DNA from: Octopus vulgaris
Lineage: Eukaryota
Direction: 5' to 3'
DNA length: 64,000 nt
NCBI GenBank assembly: GCA_951406725.2
Contig: OX597826.1
Location: 63,922,001 to 63,986,000 of the forward strand
In this document: piece after piece, positions 1,388 through 53,644 of the stretch
How positions within the stretch are numbered: the stretch's first letter is position 1
Layout of the letters: every line of letters starts with the position of its first letter
Notes under the pieces: model-generated
Told to the model about the DNA's origin: nothing
The model's input: the letters and a program-made list of their open reading frames with translations, nothing else
Databases searched by the model: none
Translations under genes and position numbers: made by a program

Positions 1388-1463
1388 TTAACAAAATAGT
1401 GGTTCATCTTGAAAAATATCAAGTTGAGATGGATTGTCTTCCATTTTTGATGCTGTCAAAATC
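1388..1463 (-). CDS. HMG-box gene, terminal coding exon 5 (R)ILTASKMEDNPSQLDIFQDEPLFC*
   Basis: Long polypyrimidine tract TTCTTTTCTTTTTTTTTGTTTTCTCTAG acceptor; phase 2 matches exon 4; open to TAA. Confidence 0.65.
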
Positions 1464-1630
1464 CTAGAGAAAACAAAAAAAAAGAAAAGAATAGGAGTAA
1501 TAAATTAGTGTGCATATATTAACGACAGAAGAATTAATGATTAACCTTTTTGTTAACTTCTTTCTGTTGAAATACACTGTCTTTGTTACAGTTAATTTTG
1601 AAAACAATAAAAGAATTAGTGAAGTAACTT

Positions 1631-1985
1631 TCATCATCATCATCATTTAACGTCCACTTTCCATGCTAGCATGGGTTGGACGATTTGACTGAGGTCTGGC
1701 AAACCAGATGGCTGCACCAGACTCCAGTCTGATCAGGCAGAGTTTCTACAGCTGGATGCCCTCCCTAATGCCAACCACACCGAGAGTGTAGTGGGTGCTT
1801 TTACATGCCACTAGCATGAGGGCCAGTCAGGCAGTACTGGCAACAGCCACGCTCAAATGGTGCTTTTTATGTGCCACCTGCACAGGAGCCAGTCCAGCGG
1901 CACTGGCAATGACCTCACTCGAATGTTTTTTCAAGTGCCACCAGCACAAGTGCCAGTAAGGCGACGCAGGTAACAATCACACTCG
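1631..1985 (-). mobile_element. SINE with (ATG)n tail (family S1)
   Basis: (CAT)n followed by TTTAACGTCCACTTTCCATGCTAGCATGGGTTGGACG, shared with copies at 21948, 61563 and 62466. Confidence 0.8.
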
Positions 1986-2289
1986 TTATTAAAGCTGATG
2001 TCAAGAACTTAAATTAATATGAAATTTGGATTGAAAGTTTTATTTAGAATCTTAATTTTAGATCATTTTAAAATGAGAAGCATGTATCATAGAACTAGGC
2101 ACAGTTTCAGGTAGATTAGCATAAAAAGGTTTAAACTTCTTGAAACAGGGCAATTCAAATTTATGTAACAGGTACTCCTGCTTGGATAGATGCAATATGA
2201 ATATTAATATCCCTCCTCAGCATGATTTCGCTTCATTATGAGTTAAAGCTGGAAATCATTTGAGGGGCAAAGCAAGAGTGTTTAGTGTA

Positions 2290-2612
2290 GCAGGTAATAG
2301 TTGGGATACCCTTCGGTCATGACTGACCGTGGGTTTGCGCCTAGAAAGTTACCCTCCCAGGCACAAGTCTGGGCAAGATTGCTTACTTGCACTTTGTCAA
2401 CTGCATACATTTGCAAATGACCAGTGTTATCCAAGGGAAAAGCAAAGGGGCCGATACAGCTTGGCACCTGTGATGTCGCAACTCATTTCTACAGCTGAGT
2501 TAACTGGAGCAAAGTGAAATAAAGTGTCTTGCTCAAGAACACAACACACAGCCCGGTCTGGGATTCGAGCTCACAACCTCACAATCGTAAGCTCGCGCTC
2601 TAATCACTGAGG
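2290..2612 (-). mobile_element. tRNA-derived SINE
   Basis: Minus strand starts with a tRNA-like head (CTCAGTGATTAGAGC...GCTCGAATCCC), then the TGTGTTCTTGAGCAAGACACTTTA central domain. Confidence 0.7.
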
Positions 2613-2690
2613 TAATAATGCATTTATCTTCAATGTACTGACTGATCCAACAGATTGCTTACTTGCACTTTATCAACTGCATACATTTGC

Positions 2691-2695
<5 letters not shown>

Positions 2696-2765
<70 letters not shown>

Positions 2766-2778
2766 TGTGTGTGTGTGT
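2696..2778. repeat. (GA)n(GT)n compound microsatellite
   Basis: Direct reading. Confidence 0.95.
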
Positions 2779-4121
2779 AAATTATGTACTAAATTTGTGG
2801 GAAAAAAATTAAAACAAAATCAGGGCTGGGTAGTCATCAGAGGCAAAGTTAGAAATGCTGAAGCATTTATCTGCAATGAGAGAGTGTACATAGGTATGTG
2901 GAAATGCTTAAGTCTAAAAAACTGATCCAAAAGTGTTAACATTGTTTTGTTTTTAATTCATTTTATAAAATCATGGCTGTTCACTGATAAAGCTAACCTT
3001 TTCAAACTAATTAAACTAATATAATCCACATATTTACAGGCTTTTTTACTAGAATATGGAAAAATATCAAAAAAGCTAATTGTAAATTTACTTTTTGTTT
3101 TAGTACTATTTTTGCCACACATTCAACCCCCGCCCATCCCCCAATAAACTAGAGGAAAGAGAGAAACACCATTAAATATAATATTCTAGGTACTTGGAGA
3201 CTACTTTCTTGTGAGAAATACAGATTGTAACATCAACATGCAAATCTAATTAACAGCAGAAAGGGTTTGAGCAATTTACTTGAAGTAGAATTCCAATTAT
3301 CAATATGCCTGAGGCAGTTCTTCTCTTTCTCGTTGTGCACCGGCAACGAAAATAGACATTCATACCCTGTCATTCATTCTGTCTTTTTATGTTGCATTCT
3401 TCCCAATTACAGAGATGTCTGCTAGAATTGTCCGTTAATTTGGTGGTTGATATCTGTAACATTTGGTTATTACATTAAACTTTGTATGAACCAAAGTATA
3501 ATACTCAAATCTAGATAAGTTACTTGCACTTTGTCAACAGCATACATTTGCAAATTAGAGAGAGAGAGTGTAAATTATGTACTAAATTTGTGGGGAAAAA
3601 AATTAAAACAAAATCAGAGTTAGGTAGTCATCTGAGGTAAAGTTAGAAACGCTGAAGCATTTATCTGCAATGTGAGAGTGTACATAAGTATATCATACAC
3701 ACACGTACCATTCTCATCTGCATCATTTTACATCTGCTTTCCATGCTGGCATGTGTTGGATGGGCTGTCATGATCTGAGTCCTTTCTTACAGGGACCTAC
3801 TACTCTCATAGTTTGATGCTCTTGAACATGGTTTTGGTAGCCTGATGTCCTTCCTATCAGCAACCACTTTACAAAATGTACTCAGGGCATTTTCTCATGG
3901 CACCAACACCAGAGAGGCTTAAAAGTTCTGGGTATGACAAGACTAAAAGGAACTTACAACCCTACACTTTCTGTGCCATCCACTTTACAGAGTTTATTGG
4001 ATATATTTTTGTGGCAGCAGCACTGAGAGGGTTGTCAAGTCCTTGGTGAAACAGAAGTAATGGACACCTTTGCTTGGCCACCTCCAATCAATCTGGAGAA
4101 TGTACATGTACATGTAAAATT

Positions 4122-4124
<3 letters not shown>

Positions 4125-4176
<52 letters not shown>

Positions 4177-4296
4177 CTTCTTTCAGTTTCCATCTGCCAA
4201 ATCCACTTTGGCTGGCCTGAGGCTATAATAGAAGACACTTGCTCAAGGTGCCATGCAATGGGACTGAACCCGGAATTATGTGGTTGAGAAGATTGC
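4125..4296 (-). mobile_element. tRNA-derived SINE (family S2) fragment with (TA)n
   Basis: Reverse complement of the S2 body seen at 43408 (CTTTCAGTTTCCATCTGCCAAATCCACT...AGAAGACACTTGCTCAAGGTGCCA). Confidence 0.75.
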
Positions 4297-4460
4297 TCTG
4301 GGCTCGCATTAGGCAAGAAGTTGAAAGTTTTTTGGTCCATGACACTCCATGGACCCTAAGTAAGGCATGTGTAAAATTTAAATGAAATCGGTTGTGTAGT
4401 TTTCGAGTTTTAGGGATTTACAGACAGACAGACATTCTCATCTTTATAGATATCTATACT
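4297..4460 (-). mobile_element. Helitron-like 5' fragment
   Basis: Minus strand reads TCTATAAAGATGAGAATGTCTGTCTGTCTG...AACCGATTTCATTTAAATTTTACACATG, resembling the 5' ends of the Helitrons in this window. Confidence 0.45.
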
Positions 4461-5020
4461 AATATATATATATACAGCATGTCAAGGCTTGCCTCTCTAT
4501 CCATGCGAAGAATGGATCTAGTGGACTGTGCAGAAGAAACCTTCATGGTTCAATGGAAATGAAGGCAGCTACAGCAATGTAGAATGCAGAGAGCAAGGTG
4601 AGGCAAGTAAGACATCGTGATAATTCACTCATCCATCTCCATCCTCAGTCATCTTCACTTGGTCCTGCCACTGGATTGAAGATGGTCACGGACGAGGGAT
4701 TGAGGTTGATGGTGCACAACTCTTCTTCACTTTAAATTCAGTCACTATGTATGTCATCAGTCATCCTTAAGAATGGCTAGCTGACCCTTGTTGCTCCAAC
4801 AGATGAACATATATAAAATACATTCATACAAATATGCAATCATATGTGCACTGCATTTTTATGTACATATATGTGTGTAAATGTATATAGGGAAGCCTAA
4901 CAGCAACTTCAGGTAAAGCAATGTGGCCTATTAGTGCCTGTGTATGTATATGCATACAACAAGGGTTAACATTATTTACAATGGACAGATACAACAAGGG
5001 TTAACATTATTACAATGGAC

Positions 5021-5064
5021 CACAATGTTTCAGCTGATGTACTCTCCAGCCTTCATCAGGTGTT
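5021..5064 (-). ncRNA. minimal type-I hammerhead ribozyme motif (Penelope-type), probably degenerate
   Basis: AACAC-CTGATGA-AGGCTG(GAGAGTACAT)CAGCT-GAAAC-ATT-GTG: both catalytic core boxes and stem II present. Confidence 0.6.
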
Positions 5065-5270
5065 CTGGTGAAATTTCAAATCCAAACCTTTATTTGATTA
5101 ATGAGGTACTCTGTTCTCATTCCTAAAGTTTTTATTTACTGATGTTATTTTTTGTTGATATCATTTCCCAAGTCCTTGCCTGGGATTGAACTCAGGAAAA
5201 AAAATACCTTAGGAATGAGAACAGAGTACCCCATTAGTCAAATAAAGGGTTGGGTTCAAAATTCCACCAG

Positions 5271-5312: not shown

Positions 5313-6089
5313 CAACAACAAACAAGGTAAGGACACCTATCCATCCATTGTAAATAATGTATATAATTTCTCATCGTAAAAATATAGAATAATAAAAACA
5401 AGGTTTAACATTTGAGTTTTCTACTATCTAATTCAATAAGAAACCAATTTGTCTCAAATTATGCCAAATTAACTTTCAGCATTATTTATGTATTCCCTGC
5501 CATCCAACAATATTAATAATGACAAAATCATACATGAACCTTCCCATGTTGAATATAATGACTTAACAGAGATGATTCTCCTCTACCCAAGTCTTTATGC
5601 AAACTTATGTGTTCACTACAAGATACCCAAGTGATTAACAAGTTATACTACAGGCAATTTTAAGCATTTCATTACACTAAATTGCAGTAAAATTATCCAA
5701 GTTCCCATCGGGGTTCGTGTATGTATGGTGTGTAATGTAGATATAATGGAAAACAGATGTTAATATGATTATGAGGGTGACGATAAAGTTTACCAATCCT
5801 ATAAAGGCTTCACAGTTGTAGTAGCTTGACTTTGCTACTCAGAATCAAAAAACTATCATATTTGCCAGATATATGAATGTAAATCCATTTATTCTGGCTA
5901 GTTTCACCTAGGGTGTCTTATGTATCTTAGCCCTCACTGGGATGCTACCATAATGTGTTACTGCTTTTGTTGCTGTGGTTGATATTTAATGAATTAAGGA
6001 GTTTAGTACCAGTGTCCTCATATGTAGATGTTGATGTGAAGTAAGCTCATCTAGGATCTTACATAGTAGAATGTCCAAGTGAGGTTTGA

Positions 6090-6277
6090 ATACCATATTC
6101 ACTAGTGTATAAGACACACTCTGACATAAGATAAAACCCTACTTTTTTTGTGGAAAACAAGTTTATTTTGCAGAAAAAATAAGTTGGATATATTTTATTA
6201 TACACTCATACACTTGTTACCCAAATTGTAATATGGTCATGAGAATAAGCACATCTTACACACTGTCACACATGGTA
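6090..6277. mobile_element. degenerate TA-flanked MITE (Tc1/mariner/pogo-type)
   Basis: TACCATATTCACTAGTGTATAAGAC...CATCTTACACACTGTCACACATGGTA imperfect terminal inverted repeat. Confidence 0.45.
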
Positions 6278-6661
6278 TATCAATATTTTCCATGTACATA
6301 CATATGTATTTTTAGATGGATACCGAAAAGCTATACTCTTCTGAACACAAGCTAGAAGAACCAATAGCATATGTGTATAAAACTATGTTTATGGTTGATA
6401 GATTTTCATCTTGCACGGGAGAAGAATCCTTGCCATTTGGACCACTAAGAATTTGATGGCCCAGACATGTGTATAGCATTAAGACAAAAGATTATTATTC
6501 ATTGACTAAAGGTAATAAAGAAATGAAGATGCTAAATAGGATAATAATTCTTATATATACACACAAATGAGAGTAAGTGAGCTTGTATGCCATACAAGAA
6601 TATTAACAATATACAAAGGAAATGTATAAATTGCGTTTTAAATGAATGCCTATTGTCTTAC

Positions 6662-6747
6662 CTTGATTTATTTGATTTTCTTTTTTCAGGAGTCACTTCA
6701 TCAAACATGCTTTCAAAAGGATAATCTTTAGGTACATTTTCAAACTT
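6662..6747 (-). CDS. HMG-box gene, coding exon 4 KFENVPKDYPFESMFDEVTPEKRKSNKS(R)
   Basis: TAATAG acceptor, AG|GTAAGA donor, 86 nt, phase 0 in and phase 2 out, matching both neighbours. Confidence 0.7.
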
Positions 6748-9612
6748 CTATTAATTAGATACATGAAAAAAGTGTGGAAAGGTATGTGATTGTTAAATCT
6801 ATTGGAAATTTAAAAGTTTATATTAAGTTTGTATTCATAAATATAATCCACTGGACCAATTCTTTTATGTTCTCTTTCCTGTAACTGGAAGGTATACCCT
6901 TACAACTTCTCACTATCTTTTCTTCTTTTCCAATAAAGCCATGTATATCCTGTACAGCAAGACACTTGTTTCTATTCCTCTATCTTATTAACCTCACATA
7001 AAGCCACCTCTCCCAATACTACCGTCTCCACTCAGTTGAGGGATTTTGTCATGTGAATAATATTGTAAACTTACTAGTACAAGTGCCACATAAAAAATAC
7101 CCAGTACACTCTGTGAAGTAGTTGGGGCTAGAAAGCACATCTAACCATAGAAACCCTACCAAAATAAACATTGGAGCTTGACACAGTCCTCTAACTCATC
7201 AGTTTTCATCAAACCATTCAACCCATATAGCTACTTTAATAATGAAGAATGATGACAAAAAGATGTTCTCTCTGGCATGGACTAGGTGGTTTGACAGAAA
7301 CCAGCAAGTTAGTGAATGCTGTCTTGTACTAATGTCTCAATTTTGGCACAGTTTCTATGGTTGGATGCCCTTCATAATGCCAATCACTTTGCAGAGTGTG
7401 TTGGGTAATCTTTTCATAATACCACCACCCTAGTGGAATTGCTTTGTAAGACTGAAGAGCTCTCAAATTAAAGAGAATCAGAAAAGGAATGGTGACTTAG
7501 GCGAAGTATGATAAGAAGAACAGATTTACTGTTGAAAAAGGTTGTCAGTGGAAAAACGAAGTGTTAGGGAAGGGAGTAATTGAAAAGAAAAAGAGCAGTA
7601 TCAAGGGTTAGTGAGAGTAAGTCAGAAAAAAATCAGGACAGTAGGGTGGGCTGTAAAAGGAGATTTAGAGCTAACCCATGATATATATGAATGAGGATAG
7701 ATGGAATAGTGCTAGAAAAAGAAATAAAGATGATCATACTGAGAAGCCAGAGCTTATCCTCAAACTAACATATCCAAGTAGGCAGATAGGAGAGAGCCTA
7801 GTGGCATAAGGATCAGGAAGGGAGAATAAAAGTTGCAAGAATGTGGGAGGAGGAGAGAGAGATGAATAGAAATGGGAGAGGCAATAGTCAGAAATAAGGG
7901 TGAAAGCAGCCAGTCGTGAGTCGGAGTACAATGGTAAGAATGTAGGATGGAGCACATGATATATGATTTTGGATATGCAGTGTTGATTCGAGAAGCAGAT
8001 GAAAGTTAGCTGAAAAAAAACCCCATTAATTATAGACTGGTTGTTTTATACAAGTAAATCTTAAGAGATGGTTTATGCATGAAAGATGCAAAAGATGGGA
8101 TATAAAAGAGATGATGCTAGAATAAACAGGAAATATAAATGGTTTATTACTGACTAGATGATATATAGGATAGATGCAGAGAAAAGAGTTGAAACAGTGA
8201 TGCAGAAATGGTTCTCAGCACCAAGGAATAGAGACACTTCTAGTAACCTATCTTGCCTTTAATTTGAGGTTGATCACTAGAATGCTTGGTACATTCTTCA
8301 TAGAGGAAAAAATTAGTGTTCATGACCAGTTGCCTATATCAGTTACTACTTACTTAATGACAGTGAAGTCTATCTTGTGTGTGTGATCCCCTGATTAATA
8401 GGTGATTAGACTGCCAGTAGATTTCTTGAGTAAATAGTTATGAAGCTAGAAATTGTCAGGCCATTTGCATCATAAAAGTCCAAGAGCTTTTATTCTTCTT
8501 TATTCCTGATACCATATCCATAGTCTCCATGTATATCAGGCCATCAGGGCATTAATCAACAAGTCCATTAAGTCATCAGCCATGATAGCTAAGTCATTAA
8601 CAGTCATTAACAAGGTAGTCTGCAAGAGGATTATTGATTCTATCCTTACTGGAGTGCATATGAAGAGATCACTGTTGCTGTTGTGTGACCTTCAAGTGAA
8701 GCTTAATTATTGTTTCACACACTGATTGCCTCAATTTCTTTATTGATTTCTCTGCAACAATTTACTCATTCCATTCACCCCAGTGCTATTACCTACTATA
8801 ATGAACTTCTATCTGTATTTCTTGCTCACAAGGAGTCTGATTCAAGGCTCCTTTCCACCTTACCTCTTGTACACAGTACACATTTCTCCACCTCCACCCT
8901 TGCAACTCTAAATCTCTCCACATCTACATTTCATCATTCTGGCAGCCTTCAAATTTTAAACTTGAAGAGAAAAGTTTCTGCTGGTAGGTGGGCTATCAGT
9001 TATCTTTATTCTGCATCCAAAAGGAAGACAGTTTTTATGATTACACTGAATGTAATCGTTAGATGATGATTACTGGGTTCTCATACATGGCCAAATGTTT
9101 TTACCTGACCACTGTACAACCATGTGCAGCACAAACATTATATTAGTCCTGTATATGCAATTGACTTCCATTGTACTTTTGATTAAGAATTTGACAGGAT
9201 ATTTTTAAAGAGGTGAGCTAGATACCCTTTCTATCACTAACCACTTTACTACATGAACTTGGTGTATTTTATTGTGTCACCAACACTAGAGTGATTGTCT
9301 CTTAGAGCTGAAGCATTCTCCCACCCATCTACACTGTGTCAGCTTTCATTCAATTTTGTTGCTCCCCTAGATGGGTTGCCTTTGCAATAACTTAGATTCC
9401 ATGTCTCCTTTGTGTGGTTATAACAATGCGCTTTTCATTACATTAGGTTTGTTCAAATTGCCTCATTTCCAAGACAAGTTACTTCCTTTATAGCCATGAA
9501 ACCATTTCTTTCCACATCCTCATAAAAAGATACATAATTGCTACATAATAAGAGAATTATTGACAGAAGTTATTTCTCATACCAATTTATGCAAATATCA
9601 TTAAAAACTTAC

Positions 9613-9753
9613 TGGGTTACATTTGTAAATGGAATGAGATTTAGCATCACCACCAGCTGAAATTTTGTCATTAATATAGAGTATTGCTTTTGAATCCATT
9701 TTCTCATTCTCTTCTACATGTTCTTCATAACTGTCAGAATCTGGGTCAGAGAG
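9613..9753 (-). CDS. HMG-box gene, coding exon 3 LSDPDSDSYEE...YKCNP
   Basis: TTTTACTTTTCAG acceptor, CCA|GTAAGT donor, 141 nt, phase 0-0, inside ORF 9601-9783. Confidence 0.8.
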
Positions 9754-11506
9754 CTGAAAAGTAAAATAGGTAAATATCAACATATTTCCTGACTTTCATG
9801 TCTTCAACCATTTCTTTTTTATATGAAAATGAAATAGAATGGAGATATTACCCAGTAGAAGCCGATATATTGAATTAAAGAAAGACTGAATAATAATTTA
9901 GCAGTTATCTCACTTGTGTTTTCAATAAGATATTATTTTAAAAAAGGTGAAGTTCATAAAAATATGTTCTCACTAGAATTAGCTATTGATTAACAATATA
10001 CCAGTTGGAATTCAGCAGAAGAAACTGTTCAGTTTTAAAAGAAATCCTTGGTGTTATTAAAATAAAATTAAAATTCTCTCTGAAATATGTCAGTCATATT
10101 TATTTCCGGTTAACATTAAATATGTGCAGATAATGACTATTCATTATTTAAATTATAAACATTTATATTTTCCCATACCAACAAATGCATAATATCATAC
10201 ATTTACAAAAATATTGCACTGAAGATATACTTCAATGATGAGGTCAGAATAAGATCAAAATATGTCCATAGTTGTCTAACATACTTTCTATTTGCCACTG
10301 ACTAATTTTTTTTCTTACTTTTTACATTTTTTCTGCATATTTTTTTCTAGTTAGTTTTTTAATATTCTATGTTAACACTAATTTATTATTGTTAATTATA
10401 AAATTTAATTATGAAAGTGTTTAATAGTAACAGTCAAGTAAGTGGATAGTGACTACAATGAAATTTAATCCAGAGTGGAGAAAACAAACACCTCTTTGTC
10501 CTTTCTCTTAGTTTCAGTGCTCACCTCAAACAAGTAAAAGTATAACATTTAGCTTAGCAACTACACTAAAGACGCATACTATGATTGAAATTTCAGCATA
10601 GAATTCAATGGTATCTCTTATGACCAATAAATGTACAAATTGTTGTCAGGAAAAATGAAAAGTTAACTAAACTGGTCTTGATTATAGCTGCTATAAAAAC
10701 AAACCATCATGATTGTATACAGGATTATATAAGACTAACATTTGAAATTCATCCTCTTTTGAAAGAGTCTTGCACATGAATTTCAATTGTTTCCATCTTA
10801 CCAAAAACAGCTTTATATTCATAATAATAATGCAATTATATTTTCAAACAATATTAAACCATTGGAGTTTAGACAACATCTTCAATATATTATAGTTTAT
10901 GATTTCTTAAGTTCAGTCTGCTATCAGTGCAATCACAGTAAATCTCTCTCACTGCTGAATTTTGAATAATACATCAGTTGTTTGTATTTTGGAATCCACT
11001 AATTATATTCTCAAATTTTAGTAAAACTGGAATTGTACAGTAAAATTGTTAGATGTTTTGATAAAGTTACTATGCTAAATTGACATAATAAATTCCTTAA
11101 ATACAGAGCTCTAACAATTACGATAAACTGTTACTGTCTATATTATATTTAATTTTGTCTCCTTCACCCACAGAGAGACCTTATCTACAGTCAATAATAG
11201 TTTACTAGCAAGCTGGCAGAATCATTAGCATGTCAGGCAAAATGCTTAGTGAAATTTCATCTGTCTTTACATTTTGAGTTCAAATTCCACTAAGGCCGAC
11301 TTTGCGTTCATCCTTTCAAACCTCAAGACAATAACCCTCTCAACTAATATAGCATGGAATAGTTTTAATAATAATTTTTTAATGTTTCTAATTTAGGCAT
11401 AAGGCCAGTAGTCTTGATTATATTAACCCCAGTTTATGAGTAATAATATATTTTGTTAGTAAAGCATATTAACAGGTAACTAAATATCACTGTCAACAAT
11501 TCTTAC

Positions 11507-12476
11507 CTCACTAATTCCAGATAATGGTGAAGAACACTCAGTGACCATACTGTCTGGACTATTACTGATCATTGATGTCATCAATGAAGGTGACACCATT
11601 TTCTTCATTTTTGTAACACTCTTCTCGCTTGAATCTGAACATTTTTGGGATTCTTTCTCATCTTGAGAGTTGTTCCAGAAATCCCATTCAATAGAAGATT
11701 CCAAATCATTATCTCCATAGTCATTAGAACTCAAAGATTCATCTGGACTAAATAAACACTTGAATTTTGAAGATGTTACATTGCTGGACCTTTCGCTATT
11801 TTTTATCGGGACATTTGCATTCCATTTCAGAATCTTCTCATTTGAATCTGATTTCTCTGACAATAACAACCTGTGATGATTTATGCCTTTTATTTTTTTA
11901 CTTTTTGTTGCAAGGCTTTTAGGTGTGCTGGAATCATTGTCATCACTTTTGCAGGCTACATTTTCTGTGAACACCGAATTCCCTCTTGATCCTTTTTTCT
12001 TGGGGGCTTGACAAACCTTTTGAATTATTAACTGACTCATACTTCTTTGCAGCTCAGGTGTTAAAGGTTTATTAGTTCTTTCTTCTGCAGATTTAGCCAG
12101 ATTCTCACTTGCTGAGATTTTCAAATCACTTTTAGGACTTGTTTCATCTGACTGTGAAGAGCTCCAATCTTGTGCGTAATTGAAAACTTGGTGTGCTTGC
12201 TTCTGGTTAAAATAACTTTTATCAACAAGTCTTTTGCTTCTTCTTTTGGACTCAAGTACATTAGGAGTAGAAGATCTACAATCTCCATCACCCCCTTGTA
12301 TTTTTCTGCAAGTTTCTTTCTTTTCCTTGATTGAGGTTTCCACAGTTTTTTCATGTGTTTTACTACTCCAGTTTGGCTCATTAACCACATCAGGTTTTAA
12401 TTCACTTGCATTACATAAAGATGGCACAGGAGAAACATTAAACTTTACTTTAGTCTTTTGATCTTTTTCTGAACAT
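11507..12476 (-). CDS. HMG-box gene, large coding exon 2 (Ser/Lys/acidic low-complexity region)
   Basis: TTTTGTTACAG acceptor at 12477, GAG|GTAAGA donor at 11506; 970 nt open; phase 2 joins exon 1 in frame (…GILKKR|CSEKDQ…). Confidence 0.88.
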
Positions 12477-12828
12477 CTGTAACAAAAAAAATAAAAAATA
12501 AAAAACAGAAAATTAATTTCATTTCTTTAATTATTATTATCAAAGTTTCCATATTGAATAACATATTTAGTTATATATTTCAGCAATTTATGCACACATT
12601 CAAGTTTAGAGTGAATATTTCCTAAGTAAAGCAGTTCCAATAAATTTTCGTGTTTCTAAAATCTACAAGCAGAGTCAATATTTTTTTTATTTAAGGTTCA
12701 GCTTAAAAATTAAAATTGTAAAATGTCACTTGAGAGAGATATCATAAACAGCTTCTGAAATCTTTCAGGAACTTTCATCATCAAAATACAATAATTCTTT
12801 ATTTAATTCTAATCACTTTTAACAGATA

Positions 12829-13460
12829 TAATAATAATAATAATAATAATGAAATTATTGTGTATAGTGTTCAGGAGTACTACAACTCATGAAAGGTGCA
12901 TGTGTATTACATAGAATTATGTACAAAAGTCAGGAAAGTAAACAGTGTACGAGTCATGATATACATGTGTGCATGCGTATGGAGGAGTGGGATATCAGGG
13001 GTAGTGTTGGCGAATTTCAAGAAGCCTGGAGGTTTTAAAGGATGCAATGTCTTGGCAACTAACAACTGATGCAGGTAGTTTGTTCCATGCTTCAGCAACT
13101 CTGAGTGTGAAAAAAGGTTTCCAAAAGTCATGGGAGCTGTGCTGTTTTCTGACTTTATAGGCATGCCCACATGTTAGACACATGGAGTTCAAAAAGATGC
13201 TCAAGGTAGTTGTTGGCACGATGGTTAATAATTTTGTGGGTGTTTACCAAGGCAGTTACCAGATGTTGGAGCTTCAATATATCTATTCCCAAGGAAGCAA
13301 GGTGTTCGGAGTATGGTAGATGCCTGCTGAAGGGTATTCACTTGGTTGCATGTCTCTGAACAGTTCCCAGGAGGTCAATGTCCTGAGCAAGAATAGGGGT
13401 TCCAGACTGGTGATGCAAATTCCAAGTGTGGCCAAACCATAGCCATATGTGTTAAAATTC
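12829..13460 (-). mobile_element. CR1/L2-group LINE 3' fragment with (TTA)n tail
   Basis: PHLEFASPVWNPY motif typical of the CR1-type RT C-terminus; FFTLRVAEAWNKLP further 3'; tail reads (AAT)n on +. Confidence 0.8.
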
Positions 13461-15933
13461 TTGGAAAAGTAACCTGCAACAACATTAATCTTACTTTTCC
13501 TGCATATCTCTTGAGGTTTATTAAAAGATCATTAGAATCTTCCTGAATTGAGAAATGTATAACAGATTTCAAAACTCACTAAGCATTTTAGTGAGAAAGA
13601 TATATACACACATACGTATGAGATGGGATTCTTTCTGTTTCCATCTACCAAATCCCCTCACCAGGCTTTTGTATATTTTAATAATGTACATAATCAGACT
13701 GCCTCTACTGTAAGGGAGTACATCTTGTCTGATTTGAGTAAAATTTGGAAAATTGGGAGATCTTTGTTCATTGGTAAGTAAATGTTATGTGCTGTGATAA
13801 AATCTTTCATAATTCATAAAGGTGTTTTTCTCACTAAAATGCTTAGCGAGTTTTGAAATTGATATACAAAAATAGAGTGGACAATGTAGAGAGTACAGTG
13901 TGTCCAGATTATCATACTGCACTCCATATGATTTATGTATACACAGGTATGATAAAACTGGGAAGACAGATCTGTGGACTATCAATCGTTATGTGGCTGA
14001 CAAGTTGTGTGTCAAAAGACAGCTAAATCAGGACTGACCTAGAGCTGCCCAACAACACACTAAAATAGTCCCAATATTGGTGGTCATATTAAGCTTTAAT
14101 TTTATGCTGACCAGCAAACCTATGAATGAATAGCACAAATCACTCTGCTTATTATCATTGAGCCATAGTAGATCCTTCAGTCATGTATAGAAAACAGGAA
14201 ATCAAAACCGATGTAACAAGTCCTGATTATTACACTGCATCTCCACTCACCCAAACCATCACATGATGGAATGTACAATGTGAATGCAGCCTCTCAGAGA
14301 TGCATTATCTATGGGCTGCTGCTTCCCAATGTTCAATTAGATGCCTGCATAATATAAATCTCCTAAAACAGAACTGGCGAAGAGTTACTAAATGATAACA
14401 GCAGCAATAAAGAAGGAAGCCAAATTTGATTTCATTACATTCAAAAAGATTTCTTTATAATACACATTATATAAAATAGGGAAAACAGCAGAGATATGTG
14501 TTATGTTTTTAAACAACAAAAACAGAAAATTATGAATAGAAACAAATATATAAAATAGAACCAGTAAGGATAATCACAATTCTGATTTTTAATTTTACTA
14601 TATTCTACCATTCTGAAGATAATATAATGGTGTTTCCTATAACTGACTCTAATCCAATTCAAAGATACACACCTTACTTAGCTTGAAAGTTAAATTTAGA
14701 AAATAGCATGTTTTTTAATGAACATTTTGCAGAAGTCAGACTCATATGCGTTATTCAACACATACTGGTAGATTTGAACATCAGATTATCGTTATTTAGA
14801 GAAACAAAGGCAGTGAGGTGCCAGAATATTTTAAAGTGTTGGAAAAAAATGTATTGTGGTATTTGTGCCATCTTTTTATATTCTGAGTTCAAATCCTCAA
14901 AAAGATGACTGCCTTTTATCCCCCCAGGATTGATAAAGTAGTGGTCAAGTATTGGAGTCAATTGTATCAACTATCTCCCTCCTTTCAAAATTGCTGACCT
15001 TTTGCCTTAATTAGAAACCCTTATTTAGAGAAATATATGGGGGTTTTTTTTATTCTAAGAAGAATGCAACCAGATTCAAAGCTGACATTTTTTCAATGAA
15101 AGCCAAACTGAATATATACTTTATATCAGCTTATTAACAATTTTTCATTGCTAAAAATTGGGTCTTTGAATTCATCTATGTCACATTTATGCCAATAGAA
15201 TCTATCAATTCACTCTCCCACTGATTCTAGTTTGACTAAAGTAAGGCTTCATAGGGTTAAAATAAGCTTTTATTCTTCTGGGAAAATACACCAAACAGTG
15301 GAGAGGATAAAAACTCAACCACATGAACGAAATTATTTATCTAGAATATTACCATCATCATTTAAAGTTTGCTTTCTACACACACACACACACACACAGT
15401 TTGGTCAAACAGATTGTATTTTCCCCACATCTTTAATTCTATGTGTATTAACCAAATTTAATTTGATCAAAAATATTTTTTTTCTGTAATTATGAGGAAA
15501 TTTACAAATCTATTTTGAAAGCTTTATTTGACATTTCTTACCAACCATTTAAATATTTCTCAATTTTTATACAGTAGTCACTTCTTATGAATTAAGCTAA
15601 ACTTAGGATTGCTGTCTCTGGACAAGGTATCTATAATACATTCAAAATACTTGATTTAATAAAAATTATGTTACCCATCCATCAATTGTAAACTGCCAGT
15701 AACAGTAACAATAAAAAATACATTAAAATCTCAAGGCAATAATAATTAAAGTGACTTATTTTAGAAACCTGATAGCTACATAAACTAAATGTAACCCCTA
15801 TTGAAGATTACAATAAATACAAAATTTTAAACCTGAAACAGAAAATTCCCACAAGCAACTGAATTGAAATTCAATTGTATTTCTGAATTAAAGAATAACA
15901 AAATTCTTCTGAAATTCCAAACTTAATTTACAA

Positions 15934-15964
<31 letters not shown>

Positions 15965-17594
15965 AAAAAGGCCAGAGCAGTTCAATGTAAAAAAAAAAAA
16001 ATGATATTCAATGATAACAGAAATAGTTTCGTTCCTTCTGATGCAATTTATCAGGAAAATAAGCAAATGATAACAAACTTTATCATTACTGAATATGTTC
16101 AAATTGTTTGTTTTACATATTGATTTCTCTTCTAACAACTGTGTGTGTTTTTGCTTCTGCTTTTTTGTTTGCTTGTCTCGAAATAAGGATGCTTGTAGGA
16201 TTTACTGAGAAAGAAAATTGATTAACGCCAGTTCTTTGATTCTGTGAAATTGAAAACCAAGATAAAAGGGAACAGAACAGGGAGCTACATCTATTCAATT
16301 TGATATCCTTCGAAAACAACATCAATATTAAGGATCTTCAGAAGAAGTAAAATCTATAAAGCTTCAATTTGTTATACATGGTGAATTCCATAAAATAAGG
16401 TTTGCACTGATCAAATAAAGAAACTGGCATAGAAGGGAAAATATAAATCCTATTTTAATTAAGTATAGATTATTTATAAGAATCTGTGGACTACTTCACA
16501 TACTACCTCTTCCTCTATTTCACCTTTAGACATTACATATTCAGCAAACTGAATTAAATTAACTTTCATTCAGACAATCATAAATGTTTTATTAATAGAT
16601 GAATGATATTAAGAATACTATAGAGGAGACACAGTGTAATATAAGATTAACTGTAAAGTATTCACATTTAGTTGAAGATATAGAAGTCCTTAAAAAAAGG
16701 AAATTTATTAATAATTTATTTTTTGCAAGCGTTTTCTAAACTCGCATTATAAAACACTTTCAGCGTATTGGTGCCCTGCTTTTAGCATATAAATCAATTT
16801 AGAGAAATATTCTTTCTGATACAGCCATCCTCACCTCCATTCAAAGGAGGATTTGAATTCAAAGCTGATAGCTAACAAAACACATTAAGTATACCTTGCC
16901 TACAATGGAAAAAAGTACTTCATGGTATCTGATCACAAGCTAAAGCAACTAAGTAATTTCAAGTGTCTTGGCCAGATTGAGAAGTACTGATCCTTTGGTT
17001 TGACTAAAAAAAAACAGCATTCTTTTTACAGCATTGTAAAGTAACTTGAATAAAAATACAGAGAAAAACTTGCAGAAATGCTGGAAAAAAATAGCATAGA
17101 AATTAGTATAAATTTTAATAGGAGTTTTACAGCTTTTAACTACTTTTGAGGATGTATTATAGTTACTTTTGCATATAAGAAAATGTGTATAATATATAAA
17201 TAAATGTATTTATTCAAGTATAATACACACTTTTTTTTTACCAGATTTTTAAACTTTAAAATTAGAAGGTGTGCTTTATACACAAGAACTAATTTGGTGC
17301 AAAAGTAATTGATTTTGTGATGTGTATGCATATATAACAGAAACTGCAATTATTTTAGCTTTAGCCTATGGAGCATATGATTTAGGAGTGAGAGGCTTAA
17401 GATTTCTTTGTCCAGAAATAGAGGTGTGCATTAAACATGAATGCATATTACACATGAATAAATAAAGTATGCTAATTTTTTGTCATCGTAGTAGGACATA
17501 TAGATGTTGCACACACAAACGGTAGGAACATTTTTTACCCCTTTACTTATATTACTCCTTGAGACTATTTAAAATACATACCGTCTACTATCTA

Positions 17595-18273
17595 TCTATC
17601 TATCTATATCACTATCTATCTATATCATATTAAAAATGAACTTCAATTTTGCTTGCTTGCAATGTTACACAGCCAAACTGGTGCATAATGGGAAAATACT
17701 ATGAATTAAGGTCCCCTTGAAATGTGAATACAAGCAGAATAAAACAAGTTTGCATAAATCGGACAACTGGTTCTTGAGATATTGGGAGTTTTGGGGGTAT
17801 AAATACACACAACTTAACCCTGAAAGGGAAGAAACTCTAACCTTTCGATTAGACAGATTATAATGGGCAAAAGTATTAATGACTAACTTGCCAATGAAAA
17901 AATACGAGTTGTTTTTTTACAGTAAATGTTTCTATTTTCATTTTTGTTAAGCACAATATTTTAATCATTTAGAAATATTTTTAAATGAATGTGATTTCAA
18001 AAATGTAAGTTGTTTGTACAGTTAGTATTTATATTTTATCTTTTTTTAAACAGACAATATCTTAATCCTTTTAAAAATTATTTTCAAGTGAATATTTTCA
18101 AGTATCTTTATAAATAGCCAATCCAGCATATAATGGGGAAAATGCTTTGAAAGTAAGGTACCATAGAAATGTGAATACACATGGAATAACAGAAATTTTG
18201 CATAAATCCGACCACAAATTCCCGAGATACACAGTTGAACTATTGGTGTCCCAATGGGTCATGGGTAATCTAG
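17595..18273 (+). mobile_element. Helitron-like non-autonomous element
   Basis: TCTAT... start after an (ATCT)n run; ends CCCAATGGGTCATGGG-TAAT-CTAG|T (hairpin + CTAG); internal duplicated block. Confidence 0.5.
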
Positions 18274-19189
18274 TAATACATAATATTGTAAACTAGATAC
18301 TTTAATGCCTTAGTGTGTTCAGTATTATATTTTACGTTTGTCTTCTTAGCACACAAGCACATTCCCAAGTGGCTTCTACTAATAACAAAGCTCTGTCCTC
18401 TAGTTTTATTATAATAAGAAAAAACAATGTACCATCCACTTTAAGTGATGACCTAATATCATCTACCCACACAGAAACTAAAGCGTTATTCCAAACATTA
18501 TGGAAAAGTGTGTTATCTGGCAGTCCTTGATAACTTAGAAACTCAAGGTCCTGAATTCCACCTACTGAGATAAAACAAGTACAGAAAGAAAAAACTTGAC
18601 TGCATTTATCAAAAAAAAAAAAAAAAAAAAATGAAAGCTGAGAAAATTGAACTTACACTCTTTCTAAGAAATTAATAAATAATACACTTCTTAGAAATTC
18701 ACTCTTAGGTGGTGTTTCAATGGACTTTGTAACAGCATTTATGTAAAAAGTATAAACAGCATTTTATGTAACTTTTACAGAAACTTACATTTACTTGAAT
18801 CTGAAATATTATTTCTTTTAAATGAGCTTTCATTACAGATTCATTATAATCCCAAAGAAGACATCCGTAAGTTGAAATGATTTCTTTCTCTTTTATATCA
18901 TTATCTTTCAGACAATATATTTGACTTAAAATGCTGTCTAATGGCATAAATTTTCCCAAATGTGTGTTTAAAATACTGTAAATCAGGGTCTACCAGGGGA
19001 ATCAATGAGTCTTCTATTCACAAAAACAAACTGAAATTAGTGAAAGAAAGCAAAAAACCTTGATGAACTGTAAATATATCTTTAACATAGAATGATTTGA
19101 AAGGTCTACTTTCAAACAAATAAATCTGGGAGACTTATAAAGTATGAGAAAATTCAGCTGTGCACTAATAAGTAGAGGAATCCTATAAA

Positions 19190-19410
19190 TTGATTTCAAA
19201 TTTTGGCACAAGGCCAGTAATTTTGGGGAAGGGGGTAAGTCCAATTACATCGAACCCAGGGGTTCAAACGGTGCTTATAATATTGACCCAGAAGGGATGA
19301 AAGGCAAAGTCAACCTCAGCAGAATTTAAACTCAAAACGTAAAGATGGATGAAACGCCACTAAGCATTTTGCTCAACATACCAATGATTCTGCTAGCTCA
19401 CCACCTTAAG
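19190..19410 (-). mobile_element. SINE family S3
   Basis: Reverse complement of the AAGGTGGTGAGCTAGCAGAATC...GAGTTTAAATTC...CTTTGCCTTTCATCC unit also at 63272-63710; second copy at 19580-19775. Confidence 0.7.
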
Positions 19411-19849
19411 AATCCTTTTTATTGCCATTATGTTAACACATTTCTAAAATTTTTTGTCTCAGTATCACAAAAGTAACAAAACCTTCCTCCTTCCTTTTGA
19501 ACTCTTATCAAAAGAGTAAAACAGATACATACAGCCAAAACCATACAAATCCATAAATCTGATAGAAGCAAAGGAATTAATACTGGTTTCAAATTTTGGT
19601 AGAAAGCCAGCAGGTTTGGGGAAGGGGCTAAGTCAATTACATCGGCCATAGTGTTCAACTGGTACTTATTTTATCAACCCTGAAAGGATGAAAGGAAGAA
19701 AGTTGACCTTGGCAGAATTTGAGCTCAGAACATAAAGAAGTACAAAATGCCACTAAGCATTTTACCTGGTGTGACAAAGGAATTAATACTAAGTATTTAA
19801 TAACACAGCAATGTGATTGGTTATGTATTAAAATTAGTGCCTTCTTTGT

Positions 19850-20305
19850 TTAACCCTTCAGTATTCAGATTTCTCTGTTAAATGCAATGCTTATTTATTT
19901 ATTTACATTGTTTTGAATTAACCCTTTTGTTACTGTATTTATTTTGAGATGCTCTGTGTTTCTTTCAATTACTTTAAATATAACTAAGAATTTAGTAAAA
20001 TAACTTAGTTATCATTAAGCTAGTGTTAGGAATATAAATTGTGACTAAGGTTTGGTGGAAGATTTTAATTCAAAACATATGAAAACAAGACATTTGTACT
20101 CAGAGCCAGAGCCAGTTTCAGCCAAGTTGGTAATGAAAGGGTTAAATATGTATTATCTTGTAGAATTGAGACCACTATGATGTGATTGTTTAATCTTGAA
20201 GTGACATTGTACGGTTGATGTGAGAGGCAATATCTGGCCACTTTTTACCTAAAACAAGTGGAATATTTAGGGTGGATATGGCCAATTTATATGCTACAGG
20301 GTTAA
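19850..20305 (+). mobile_element. piggyBac-type MITE family A, interrupted by a family B MITE
   Basis: TTAA-CCCTTCAG...CTACAGGG-TTAA; the two halves match the intact copy at 52126. Confidence 0.8.
19918..20145 (+). mobile_element. piggyBac-type MITE family B (nested)
   Basis: TTAA-CCCTTTTGTTAC...GTAATGAAAGGG-TTAA; inverted relative at 27857-28077. Confidence 0.85.
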
Positions 20306-21400
20306 AACAAACTGGGGCTTTTTTTTTTTTTTTACATACTTTTGAGTGAGTCAAAAGATTGCGAAACACAGCCAGCAATGCTCTACAAAGTGAACAATGA
20401 AACAAGATAAACTATCATGAAATGCTAGAAGTCTTGGTGAAATGCATAAATGTATTAAGAGAGAGCAAATGCAGGAAAGTCCGACTTAAATGGCAGAATA
20501 TTGACACAGCCAGCTGTATACTCAGAATTTTTAATTATCAATAATAATTAACAATGCTAACAAATAGTTTCAATGGTTACGTCAATTAAGACCAAATTGA
20601 AAAGATACTTCAGATTCTATTGATGCTATGATAAAAAAAATTAAATGCATCATTTATAAGGTTAATTAAAGCCTATGTTTTCGAAACTTTCTGCAATTAG
20701 CATGAATTCATAAAAGCTAACGAGATGAAACAAAATTGAAATGAATGAAAATGAATATTTATTTTTCTAGGAAGATGACCTGATTTTAAACATTGTATAT
20801 TTTTATATTATTATTTGATAAGTTCTACTTATTTTATATTTTTTTCAAGTGTATTTCATTAACACTGAAGTGGTGAGGTTTTACTGTTTTAAACAGTATA
20901 ACAGTCTTCATCAAAACACACACAGATACACAGTACAAATGTCACAACAACAATATACAACGTTCTGGTTACTGTCAAATCATGTAAAAGTTGATGCATG
21001 TCACTTAAGAAATTATTATATAAAGAACACAGTAAAGTGACAAATGACACTTCAGTATAGATTGCAGGGCAATCGATTGTTTTGACGTAATGGATTTCAT
21101 CAACTACATACACCCATTAACCTGGAGCTGTCACAAATGTCACAGCTCAAGTTGCACATCTGCAAACTGACTTGTTGCACTTTTTACCTCCAGTCTGCTA
21201 CTGTGAGACCACAACAGTCATCATGAAGAAAATTCCATGTTACACTAAACATGACCTCATAATACAAACATAACCTCAAAGTCAATTTGCAGACAAGTGA
21301 TTCAAGGTGAGACAGCTTTAGATAAAGCTTACTCAGACCTGATGAGACATAAGCAGTTGAAATAGCCAACAGGCTATCGTTTTCCAGTTTTATATATACA

Positions 21401-21770
21401 CTAGCAGTATCGCCCGGCGTTGCTCGGGTTTTAAGGGAAATAACTATAAAGCATTTTTAGAGAGTTATAGCCAAAAAATGGAAAAAAAAATGATGTAAAT
21501 TTTTTTTTTAGTTAAAAAGGTCGAGTTGCGTCCCCTAGACAGTCTGTGGTTTGTGTTTCTGATTCTCGACCCCATGTCGAATTTATCGATTTTTTCAGAA
21601 CTGGGGGAACTTTTCAAAACTTTCGCTGCGTTAGTTTTGAATTATGACATTGGGCTATGTGTGTGTCAAGTTTCATCAGAATCGGTTGAAAGCCGTGGTC
21701 AGGGTGAGGGTACAACCTAACAGACACACAGAAACACACACAGACAAACTGCCATTTATATATAGAGAGA
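21401..21770 (-). mobile_element. non-autonomous Helitron
   Basis: Minus strand A|TCTCTCTATATATAAA...CCCGAGCAACGCCGGG hairpin-CGATACTG-CTAG|T; no TSD; near-identical to 41145-41527. Confidence 0.85.
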
Positions 21771-21775
21771 TATAT

Positions 21776-21947
21776 TTCCTTTTAGCATTTAAACAGGGCA
21801 TATCTGGCTCAAATATTCTACCTGTTTTATGGTGAAACTGGATAGATCCAGCTTTTCCCTCCTATTCTGCAATATAATTTTACAAACAAACAATCACATC
21901 ATTGAAAGCTTGAAGCTAAGAGATAATGCATGATTAATTCAAAACAA
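21776..21947 (-). mobile_element. partial piggyBac-type MITE family A
   Basis: Matches 46272-46445; truncated where the S1 SINE begins. Confidence 0.6.
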
Positions 21948-22282
21948 TCATCATCATCATCGTTTAACATCCGCTTTCCATGCTGGCATGGGTTGGATGG
22001 TTTGACTGAGGACTGGCAAGCCAGATGGCTGCACCAGGCTCCAATCTTGATCTGGCAGAGTTTCTACAGCTGGATGCCCTTCATAATACCAAGCACTCCA
22101 AGAGTGTAGTGGATGCTTTTACATACCACCGGCATGGGCGCCAGTCAAGCGGTACTGGCATTGACCTTGCTCGAATGTTTTTTCACATGCCACCGGCACA
22201 AGTGCCAGTAAGGCGACACTGGTAATGATCACACTCAAATGGTGCCTTTTACGTGCCATCGGCACGGAAGCCAGCTAGCCAC
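21948..22282 (-). mobile_element. SINE family S1
   Basis: (CAT)n + CGTTTAACATCCGCTTTCCATGCTGGCATGGG; colinear with 1631-1985. Confidence 0.8.
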
Positions 22283-23852
22283 TAAGTTTATATCAAGGCT
22301 ACTGAAATTCTATCTAAATTATTTAATTTCATAACAACAAAAAAAGAAAATATTTAAATTGGAGTAGTTATTTACAATTGTTTCGTAAACTTAAATCTGC
22401 TACTGATCACATTTTAATTATATACCCACAAGCTGTTTCCTTGTTAGAGGTGATATTTTTACTTTATATCAGTAGACAACATGTAGTTATATTGATGCAC
22501 AAACAGTACACTACTCACTAGACCCCATTGTGATGCATTAGATTAAATCTTTCTTCTTCAACACCATTACTTTAATCTGCATTGATTGTGTGTTACTTCA
22601 ACAACAAACCAACTGAAATCCAAGAGAATATTAATCCCTGAAACAGAACGAAACCAAAAATCCTTCTAAAAAGATTAGATGACCAGTTCTTAAATATTTT
22701 ATAGCATTCAGCTATGAATAAAAATAGATGTTATGCTATCATACAAAATAAAAGATTACAACATCAAAATAAAGTGCCGAGTACTATAGAATAGAGATAA
22801 CCTCTTTGTTTGTTGGATTCATGACCCAGTTTCAGTTCTACCCTTGAGCCATTTACTTCATTTTACTTATGCTACAAATAGTTATAATAAAAGCTTGAAT
22901 GTCACACAATTTTCATTTATAAATTTGAAGTACTGCGCCTATTGTAAAAACTTATAAGAAATTCAAAAAGAACTCCCACACAAAGTTTATATATAAAACT
23001 CAATCGCACAGTATATAAAATCTAGTGAGAAATTATACTATTCCAAATGCCAATATTTGTATCTAGTTTTTGATGATTCAGTTAAAAATTCAGTTCATGT
23101 GACTCAATAAATACAAAACCTTCATCGGTTAACATTCTTAATCTTTAGATAAATTATATATTTAACACCTACCATGTTCAATCTGCCATATTTACTGAAA
23201 TTATCTTTGAACAAAATAAATTAAAATTTTACACAAACACAAGCACACACACATTAACCAAATACCCAACGAACACTGTGAAAGTGAACATGCTTTACTG
23301 GTAAGCTACCAGATGTATACCATTTTTGATTTACATACTTTTCTCTTTCTACAACTTTTTCAATGCACCAATTAATTCCTGGTGAACAAAATCTACATTT
23401 CAGTTTTGATTTATAGTTACAAACATTTATATTTATGTCATAAATGCTCTTGATAAAAAGGATTCAACATCACAAATTACCATTTCCTCTGCTTTACAAA
23501 ATCTGAGATTTCATACATTTGTAAGACAATATTAGCATTGTTTATATATAGTTGTTCATATATATACAAAAAAATGCTACATTGCAGATTTATCCATCCA
23601 ACGCCAGCAACTTCACCAACATCATTGAAACTGAAGGAGAATAATAACAGAATAAGTTACAGTTCAAACCTGACAGGCTATTGTAAAATACTAATAATTG
23701 ATTAACAAAAAAGCAAGATGTAATGTAATAAATAAAGATGTAATAAATTTGTATTTGTTTCATTCTGTAGGCTCCTATGCGACCTTAGACCAATGCTTCT
23801 TTGTAACAATAATTCAGATTGAAGTAATTAAATAAATGAAGAAATGAATTAC

Positions 23853-24340
23853 CTTTTCTTTAAGATTCCCTGCTGTACAAAAGGAGTTTCATCAACTACC
23901 ACCGGAACAGAGTAGCTGAACTTCAATCTGGAAGCCATGTATGTCTTACTATTGCTTCTTTGAAATGATGATGAAGATGATTCTTCAGTTGGACTAGAAC
24001 TTGTGAAAACCTTGTCTTCATTTTCATCAGATGGTCCAGACAAATCATCTTCGAAAAGATTCAACTCATTTAAATTATGGTGTTGACTGTTACTCTCAGG
24101 TTTTGTTGGCTTGCTTCTCTTTTGCTTGCAGAACTTTTTCTTTGAGCTGCTTTTTGGCACAGATTGACAGAGCACAGCTTTGCTGTAATATTTCTTTTCA
24201 GAAAGACTTAAATCATTCCACTTTTCTCTTAGTTTCTGTTGTATCTGATCCAGCGTCAGAAAAGGATAAGCTGTTGTCAGTCGATTTTTATAATCATTAC
24301 AAAATACAGTAAAACTGGCAACCTTTTTAACTTTACTCAT
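23853..24340 (-). CDS. HMG-box gene, first coding exon (divergent HMG box MSKVKKVASFTVFCNDYK...LREKWNDLSLSEKKYY + acidic/Ser linker)
   Basis: TTTCAG acceptor at 24351, ATG at 24340, AAG|GTAATT donor at 23852; F..F...(P)...I...L...W..LS..EK..Y pattern is the HMG-box signature. Confidence 0.88.
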
Positions 24341-53390: not shown

Positions 53391-53394
53391 GCTA

Positions 53395-53580: not shown

Positions 53581-53611
53581 TGTACAAATATACATATATA
53601 TATATATATAT

Positions 53612-53644
<33 letters not shown>

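Follow-up and report, generated by a model that had tools for sequence, protein, structure and literature searches.

A 64,000-nucleotide stretch of Octopus vulgaris DNA (contig OX597826.1, positions 63,922,001 to 63,986,000; hereafter the window) carries on its minus strand a five-exon gene whose product, with an N-terminal HMG-like domain and a long tail predicted to be disordered, belongs to an unnamed family found in molluscs and a hemichordate. The tail contains, in fixed order, two motifs of the SILK and RVxF types that dock protein phosphatase 1 (PP1), and this bipartite module is an island of conservation shared by octopods, bivalves and gastropods. The specificity of PP1 and of protein phosphatase 2A (PP2A) comes from targeting subunits, and we propose that the octopus protein is a nuclear PP1-targeting scaffold, a model to which, taken as a whole, we give a probability of roughly 0.55. 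Its central step, the docking of PP1 through SILK and RVxF together, is judged from the sequence to be highly probable.

The five-exon gene and its family

The gene is real, and the five-exon model of the original prediction was confirmed: the exons have GT-AG ends and splice in frame into 586 codons plus a stop, and the product is identical to the O. vulgaris database protein CAI9732028.1 (P0004). It shares 97% identity with O. bimaculoides XP_014786165.1 and 67% with two Argonauta proteins. Exon 1, used as a query, gave a single match in the octopus genome. The coding exons, the two PP1 motifs and the probable polyadenylation signal are listed below in positions of the window.

23853..24340, minus strand: coding exon 1 (residues 1-163), with the HMG-like domain, a basic stretch, KTY, VVVDETP and GILK; reading frame and contigs
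23858..23869, minus strand: GILK, SILK-type PP1 motif (residues 158-161); in 12 of 16 full-length members and, among N-terminal fragments, 18 of 22 in strict and 21 of 22 in loose form
12440..12451, minus strand: KVKF, RVxF-type PP1 motif (residues 172-175); RVQF in Argonauta, [RK]V[ST]F in 9 of 16 members
11507..12476, minus strand: coding exon 2 (residues 163-486), predicted to be disordered; reading frame, contigs and predicted model
9613..9753, minus strand: coding exon 3 (residues 487-533), Ser/acidic continuation of the B56-like island; reading frame and contigs
6662..6747, minus strand: coding exon 4 (residues 534-562), with MF-x-E-x-TP, the first half of the conserved C-terminal block; reading frame, contigs and conservation
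1388..1463, minus strand: coding exon 5 (residues 562-586 and stop), with R-x-L-x-S and the terminal F-rich motif; reading frame and conservation, junction support indirect
1114..1119, minus strand: AATAAA, probable polyadenylation signal; two contig ends would fall about 25 nucleotides downstream

The splicing was examined with contigs aligned over positions 6000-24600. Junctions 23853/12476, 11507/9753 and 9613/6747 are each crossed without a gap by one contig, with consecutive record positions, in all four runs (two studies). The RNA nature of these runs is the tool's guess, none being recorded as RNA and no tissue being given; since the contigs skip GT-AG introns, which is the behaviour of transcripts, the runs were read as transcript support for splicing. 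Contig depth is unsuitable for ranking expression. Support for the fourth junction, 6662/1463, is indirect and comes from database gene models and from two contigs that reach 370 nucleotides beyond exon 4, the ends of which would fall about 25 nucleotides past the AATAAA at 1119. The contigs of three runs continue past 24352 (126 bases in X1), which implies a further 5' exon.

Word-based searches recovered only octopods and two unionid bivalves. A four-sequence profile, compared with 1.84 billion representatives, matched 105 proteins at E up to 0.001, four of them already known. Among the other 101, 42 bear the family signature (YPFL or LSG[IVF][ST]); matches lacking it were left out of the family, and those of them that were inspected proved to be ordinary HMG proteins. 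The named members come from Dreissena, Mya, Mercenaria, Mytilus, Pinctada, Saccostrea, Ylistrum, Haliotis, Lottia, Patella, Batillaria, Aplysia, Elysia and the hemichordate Ptychodera flava, so that the family spans cephalopods, bivalves, gastropods and Ptychodera. Full-length members have 575-870 residues and, Argonauta (67%) apart, are about 15-28% identical to the octopus protein. Ptychodera was recovered by the four-sequence profile at E 2.2e-6. A profile of the HMG region built from bivalves only gave 61 bits for octopus and 44 for Ptychodera, against at most 38 for other HMG proteins, and one of the C-terminal region gave 41 and 56 bits, against at most 10 for non-family proteins; as both species are thus recovered separately from the two ends, the hemichordate link rests on two regions. 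The two Argonauta proteins (P0002 and P0006) are near-identical and lie on different contigs, being either alleles or a recent duplicate.

The original prediction had not recognised a named HMG family, which was borne out. Database names are all uncharacterised or automatic in the 20 of the 42 members looked up; these 20 include no vertebrate, insect or nematode protein, although the profile is shallow and this is no proof of absence. Beyond HMG types, no Pfam family is common to the 42 aligned members, and NCBIfam gave no match for five proteins. ESM Atlas gave no usable match with the whole octopus protein, and the N-terminus of a bivalve member matched CHDNT at 0.79, below the bar. The Ptychodera protein, searched against the octopus genome, gave nothing under a stricter filter. 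No published description of the family was found in a literature search that left most subscription papers uncovered. On these comparisons the proteins form an unnamed mollusc-and-hemichordate family, for which the searches gave no orthologue among characterised proteins.

The PP1-docking pair

GILK and KVKF lie at the positions originally described, separated by ten residues in the protein and by 11.4 kb of genomic DNA, on either side of the 11,376-nucleotide intron between exons 1 and 2. The strict pair within 30 residues is found in 10 of the 16 full-length members, with a shuffle p of at most 0.0025 in each (2000 shuffles). When the octopus protein is shuffled, SILK arises by chance in 3.6%, RVxF in 46% and the pair in just 0.2% of the cases; the original prediction had cautioned that short motifs may occur by chance in disordered sequence. 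In an alignment of octopus with 14 other members (Argonauta was dropped as a near copy), KVKF ranked 5 and GILK 15 of 521 tail windows, both in the top 3%; such ranks are optimistic, because alignments of disordered sequence anchor on islands of this kind. Both motifs lie in low-confidence sequence of the AlphaFold2 model, with a predicted local distance difference test (pLDDT) of about 50-60. KVKF is changed to RVQF in Argonauta, which retains the RVxF consensus, and degenerate forms of the pair occur in Sinanodonta, Haliotis and Ptychodera. Moreover, 15 of 21 N-terminal fragments stop 1-9 residues past the SILK-like motif, which suggests that the intron separating SILK from RVxF is old.

Several points weigh against the proposed nuclear PP1-targeting scaffold. 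Six of 16 members lack the strict pair: in the Mercenaria models, Aplysia and Elysia it is absent, and in three members it is degenerate; either it is dispensable in some lineages or the gene models there are wrong. The motifs formed part of the search profile, by which hits bearing them were favoured, and the members are related, which deprives the shuffle p-values of independence. At the Ser position of RVSF, octopods carry K or Q, so that the RVSF phospho-switch is inapplicable to the octopus protein. Finally, the only pointers to a nuclear or chromatin location are the predicted HMG-like fold and the basic stretches.

As to individual species, Mercenaria has three models (P0117, P0118 and P0018) without SILK and RVxF. 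In the Aplysia and Elysia proteins (P0061 and P0109) neither the strict PP1 pair nor the LSGIS island is present, but the HMG-like domain and the C-terminal block are retained.

The HMG-like domain and the other islands of the tail

Apart from the PP1 pair, four features of the protein are needed for its interpretation.

24170..24331, minus strand: truncated HMG-like domain (residues 4-57); Pfam, AlphaFold2 pLDDT over 90, fold matches and a 39-sequence profile
23882..23902, minus strand: VVVDETP (residues 147-153), proline-directed site just upstream of SILK; S/T-P there in 19 of 33 sequences
11993..12061, minus strand: island of TP, amphipathic helix and APKKK (residues 302-324); in 14 of 20 sequences, helix 303-318 with pLDDT about 88
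11507..11524, minus strand: LSGISE (residues 481-486), B56 consensus within the best-conserved tail island; island in 18 of 21 sequences

The N-terminal HMG box and disordered tail of the original prediction stood in outline, with the correction that the box is truncated and atypical. Pfam HMG_box matches residues 8-55 at 31.8 bits against a cut-off of 25.4, and 32 of the 42 members match at E up to 0.1. Two AlphaFold2 runs predict residues 1-60 with pLDDT over 90, strands 4-8 and 53-57 flanking helices 10-24, 30-43 and 46-49; the third helix has just four residues and is followed by a strand, so that there is no long third helix, and beyond residue 60 the model is disordered except for helix 303-318. 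The fold matches are HMG boxes, for the most part aligned over some 43-58 residues: Foldseek gave root-mean-square deviations of 0.7-1.5 Å over 43-45 columns against HBP1, SOX30 and SSRP1, and the best Z in VIA was 6.8. Sequence and fold searches of the PDB gave generic HMG boxes, none with a Foldseek E up to 0.001, which does not imply that the fold is new.

The residues of the domain depart from those of DNA-bending boxes. In the HMMER alignment to HMGB1 box B, T11 and L30 fall at Phe103 and Ile122, the DNA-wedge positions of HMGB (PMC11276821). None of 39 members has a hydrophobic residue at position 11, and two, both octopods, have Leu at position 30. In 33 of the 39 the short third helix is succeeded by a Pro no more than 14 residues on, and the N-terminal P-x-x-P-x-S strand of usual HMG boxes was found in none of the 39. 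P26, F27, L28, Q32, I33 and W41 are invariant, which for P-F-L is partly circular, members having been picked by YPFL, and for Q32, I33 and W41 is not. As the first wedge position is never hydrophobic, it is doubtful that the domain bends DNA in the canonical way; it is basic, and contact with DNA may still occur, and we infer that the P-F-L loop binds a protein partner. The term DNA-binding is thus not established, the usual wedge residues and the long helix 3 being missing. A complex prediction of residues 1-64 with residues 294-330, in which docking of the tail helix was examined, scored 0.01 against a mark of 0.34 (alignments were not used) and speaks neither for nor against such docking.

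The LSGISE island had been read as a docking site for PP2A-B56, and its position was as described: LSGISE is wholly encoded by exon 2, and the exon 2/exon 3 junction adds the acidic tail. It ranks first of 515 ten-residue tail windows. Octopus LSGISELSD (residues 481-489) fits the consensus [LMFI]xx[ILV]xE, with Ser at positions 2 and 8, Asp at position 9 and an acidic tail; the consensus and the favourable positions 2, 8 and 9 are those of PMC5586252. The octopus genome has two multi-exon B56 genes with short exons, on G000:C3 and G000:C16 (L009-L014), the first of which spans more than 220 kb; its PP1-family genes were recovered in single exons only. Cephalopods, Haliotis, Lottia, Patella and the majority of non-pteriomorph bivalves keep Glu at position 6.

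The same island also provides the arguments against a family-wide B56 site. Of 18 homologues, 11 have E at position 6, four have Q, two T and one K, and Glu is lost in all four named pteriomorph bivalves and in Ptychodera; the lone K may come from an exon-skipping gene model, judging from Potamilus. According to PMC10970375, position 6 tolerates no variation, and according to PMC5586252 phospho-Ser or phospho-Thr is no substitute for Glu there. S482, G483, L487 and S488 (identity 0.79-1.0) are better conserved than E486 (0.43), and in shuffles of the octopus protein the strict LxxIxE arises in 10% and the loose B56 consensus in 66%. Since the essential Glu varies and positions that B56 does not constrain are better conserved, B56 alone would not suffice to explain the island. 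The Ser residues at three-residue spacing would suit a kinase relay. The island is thus under selection and its octopus version could bind B56; that B56 docking is of biological use in octopus has, in our estimate, slightly less than an even chance.

The widely spread family, the hydrophobic-acidic-TP site before SILK, the TP-helix-KAP island and the C-terminal block go beyond what had been predicted. The predicted abundance of CDK-type S/T-P sites was upheld: the octopus protein has 12 against 6.4 expected (p=0.015), and enrichment at p<0.05 is found in 14 of 16 full-length members. VVVDETP exactly matches the TOPBP1 BRCT1 ligand pattern in octopus; across the family the BRCT1 pattern occurs in 3 of 33 sequences and the looser BRCT2 pattern in 12 of 33, both patterns having hydrophobic residues at -5 to -3 of the phosphorylated S/T-P (PMC6175577). 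K-[TSND]-Y stands upstream of SILK in 8 of 16 members, and a PDS5-binding reading of KTY is a weak lead; a cohesin-binding, CTCF-like reading of Y-x-F strings was rejected, the strings being scattered and not aligned. The TP-helix-KAP island (residues 302-324) has export-signal-like spacing followed by a basic stretch resembling a nuclear localisation signal; the export-like spacing is present in 9 of the 14 sequences bearing the island. The four named pteriomorph bivalves (P0014, P0021, P0114 and P0045) lose Glu6 together with this spacing, possibly in one lineage-level change. The C-terminal block consists of MF-x-D/E-x-TP, basic residues, R-x-L-x-S, F-x-x-L-F and a terminal I/L-F, and is retained from octopus to Ptychodera, Aplysia and Elysia included. 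The ABBA reading of LDIFQD and LNLFED was rejected, as the strings are not conserved as such: LNLFED ranks 448 of 519 tail windows, and LDIFQD belongs to the separate conserved F-x-x-L-F block. TPEK survived in part, TP being conserved and the full TPEK not.

In the genomic surroundings, the upstream neighbour has a large exon with Pfam Hmw_CFAP97 (L008:1440-3107, minus strand). An open reading frame of the window at about 59216-58946 (minus strand), behind an AG at about 59216, has no Pfam match, and we take it to resemble the last exon of the Hmw_CFAP97 gene. About 23 kb left of the window, L004:7006-7398 (plus strand), without a relevant Pfam match, is presumably an exon resembling ZMAT2/Snu23. 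Interspersed repeats of intron 1 (19200-20150 and 21400-22200) attract very many contigs, and a long TA-rich simple repeat lies near 53 kb (52750-53800).

Known systems, competing readings and a working model

Compared with known systems, the protein likely works like KNL1 or RIF1 in docking PP1 and has a RepoMan-like layout, and it lacks the membership features of each. As in KNL1 and RIF1, SILK precedes RVxF in disordered sequence, the Ser of RVSF is phosphorylatable in most members, and the family spacing lies inside the range of 7-28 residues of the listed human examples (CSRNP2 7, RIF1 18, KNL1 28; PMC3410773, file S8). In contrast to the family, KNL1 and RIF1 have more than 2300 residues and no such N-terminal HMG-like domain; the MELT repeats of KNL1 occur in 0 of 16 members and no RWD Pfam match was found, and the N-terminal HEAT region of RIF1 has no Pfam match in 42 members, the octopus model being disordered beyond residue 60. 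A Rif1_N search of the octopus genome gave no match anywhere and is hence uninformative. RepoMan (CDCA2) and Ki-67 likewise combine RVxF, an LxxIxE-type site and many S/T-P in a disordered scaffold (PMC6406801), but PP1_bind (PF15276) matches none of the 42 members at E up to 0.1, no FHA was found, LSPIxE occurs in 0 of 16 members, and the family uses SILK and does not keep Glu6 invariant. A separate octopus gene with PP1_bind, on another contig (L018, G000:C2:6764702-6764869, an 860-residue open frame), is a candidate for Ki-67/RepoMan. The first two helices and the beginning of the third can be superposed on HMG-box proteins (HMGB1-3 box B, BAF57, HBP1, SSRP1), from which the family differs in having invariant P-F-L where HMGB has P-G-L and non-hydrophobic wedge positions. 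PMS1 contains an HMG box and is in the human SILK-RVxF list, but was rejected, as no MutL domain was found in the family. KVKF is the tested PP1-binding core of Mypt1 (PMC3770619), although the family has no ankyrin repeats in Pfam and the four-residue core alone is common. The strict Sororin box, YSR and FGF each occur in 0 of 16 members (patterns of PMC10656103), and Shugoshin_C gave one weak match under the cut-off in the octopus genome (L019, G000:C14:37411276-37411317). The identities RepoMan/Ki-67, RIF1, KNL1 and sororin were accordingly rejected.

Under the proposed model, the HMG-like domain, together with the basic stretch that follows it, would place the protein on chromatin or on a chromatin protein and would probably leave the DNA unbent. 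PP1 would bind SILK and RVxF jointly while the nearby TP is unphosphorylated; phosphorylation of this TP and, in most non-octopod members, of the RVSF Ser/Thr would release PP1 in M phase, as in KNL1, where Aurora B phosphorylation of SILK/RVSF blocks PP1 (PMC6406801). The Ser-rich LSGISELS island would be a second phosphorylation-controlled dock, which could bind PP2A-B56 in octopus and may be a B56 dock in some lineages; its conservation probably reflects an additional use. Likely roles of the TP-helix-KAP island and the C-terminal block are to direct nuclear traffic and to bind another partner or substrate.

The nearest competitor is a RepoMan-like switch with a working DNA-binding HMG box and a CDK-controlled exchange of PP1 and PP2A-B56, both phosphatases being essential throughout the family. 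The consensus fit and first rank of LSGISELSD, the taxa keeping Glu6, the two octopus B56 genes and a basic domain that passes the Pfam cut-off all favour it, but the replacement of Glu by Q, T or K in seven of 18 homologues, at a position where neither variation nor phosphorylation is accepted, the weaker conservation of E486 than of its neighbours and the loss of the wedge (0 of 39 and 2 of 39) make it unlikely. The original claim of an LxxIxE site holds for the octopus consensus and for the conservation of the island, less so for that of the Glu across the family, and the dual-phosphatase and DNA-binding claims are unproven. Somewhat less likely still is a phospho-regulated chromosome protein of replication, repair or meiosis in which PP1 mainly resets the protein's own phosphorylation, the main partners being bound by a TOPBP1-type BRCT module at T152, by cohesin/PDS5 at KTY or by the C-terminal block. 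The exact BRCT1 match in octopus and the BRCT2 pattern in 12 of 33 sequences (PMC6175577), K-[TSND]-Y before SILK and a C-terminal block that persists in Aplysia and Elysia without the strict PP1 pair speak for such a protein; the rarity of the BRCT1 pattern in the family (3 of 33), the absence of strict YSR, FGF and Sororin-box motifs from 16 members and the unaligned Y-x-F strings speak against it.

The family could also be a fast-evolving orthologue of a named vertebrate or model-organism protein, missed as just short islands are conserved. The hemichordate member places its origin before the protostome-deuterostome split, and the exhaustive search used only the four-sequence profile; nevertheless, the lack of Pfam families beyond HMG types in 42 members, the separate octopus PP1_bind gene, the uncharacterised or automatic names and the lack of a fitting protein among the close SILK-RVxF pairs of the 2012 human and fly lists render this improbable. 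That the motifs are chance matches in the disordered tail of an ordinary HMG-box protein is hardly credible: single RVxF and loose B56 matches are frequent in shuffles (46% and 66%), but the pair, so rare there, recurs in the same order in 10 of 16 members of mostly 15-28% identity, and conservation largely refutes this reading. We therefore retain the nuclear PP1-targeting scaffold, with two limits: motifs are the sole basis for its function, and the searches described turned up no member in vertebrates or model organisms.

A wider and tentative version of this scaffold, which we place on the unlikely side, would be an ancient bilaterian family of chromosome phosphatase switches, in which a new strand-closed domain derived from the HMG box seeks out chromatin or a chromosome protein, PP1 is exchanged for PP2A-B56 by motifs under CDK control and the C-terminal block engages a third partner. 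Such proteins would do a RepoMan- or shugoshin-like job, possibly meiotic, in the lineages where they survive, model organisms having lost the family. The predicted strand-closed, wedge-less HMG variant with its invariant P-F-L loop is a small, solvable domain that may show how the HMG box has been re-used, and exact peptides for testing follow from the family motifs. To our knowledge, almost all chromosome-bound targeting subunits of PP1 and PP2A come from yeast, flies, worms and vertebrates. The ordered docking motifs kept from octopus to acorn worm would point to a conserved nuclear phosphatase circuit that is perhaps missing in those models.

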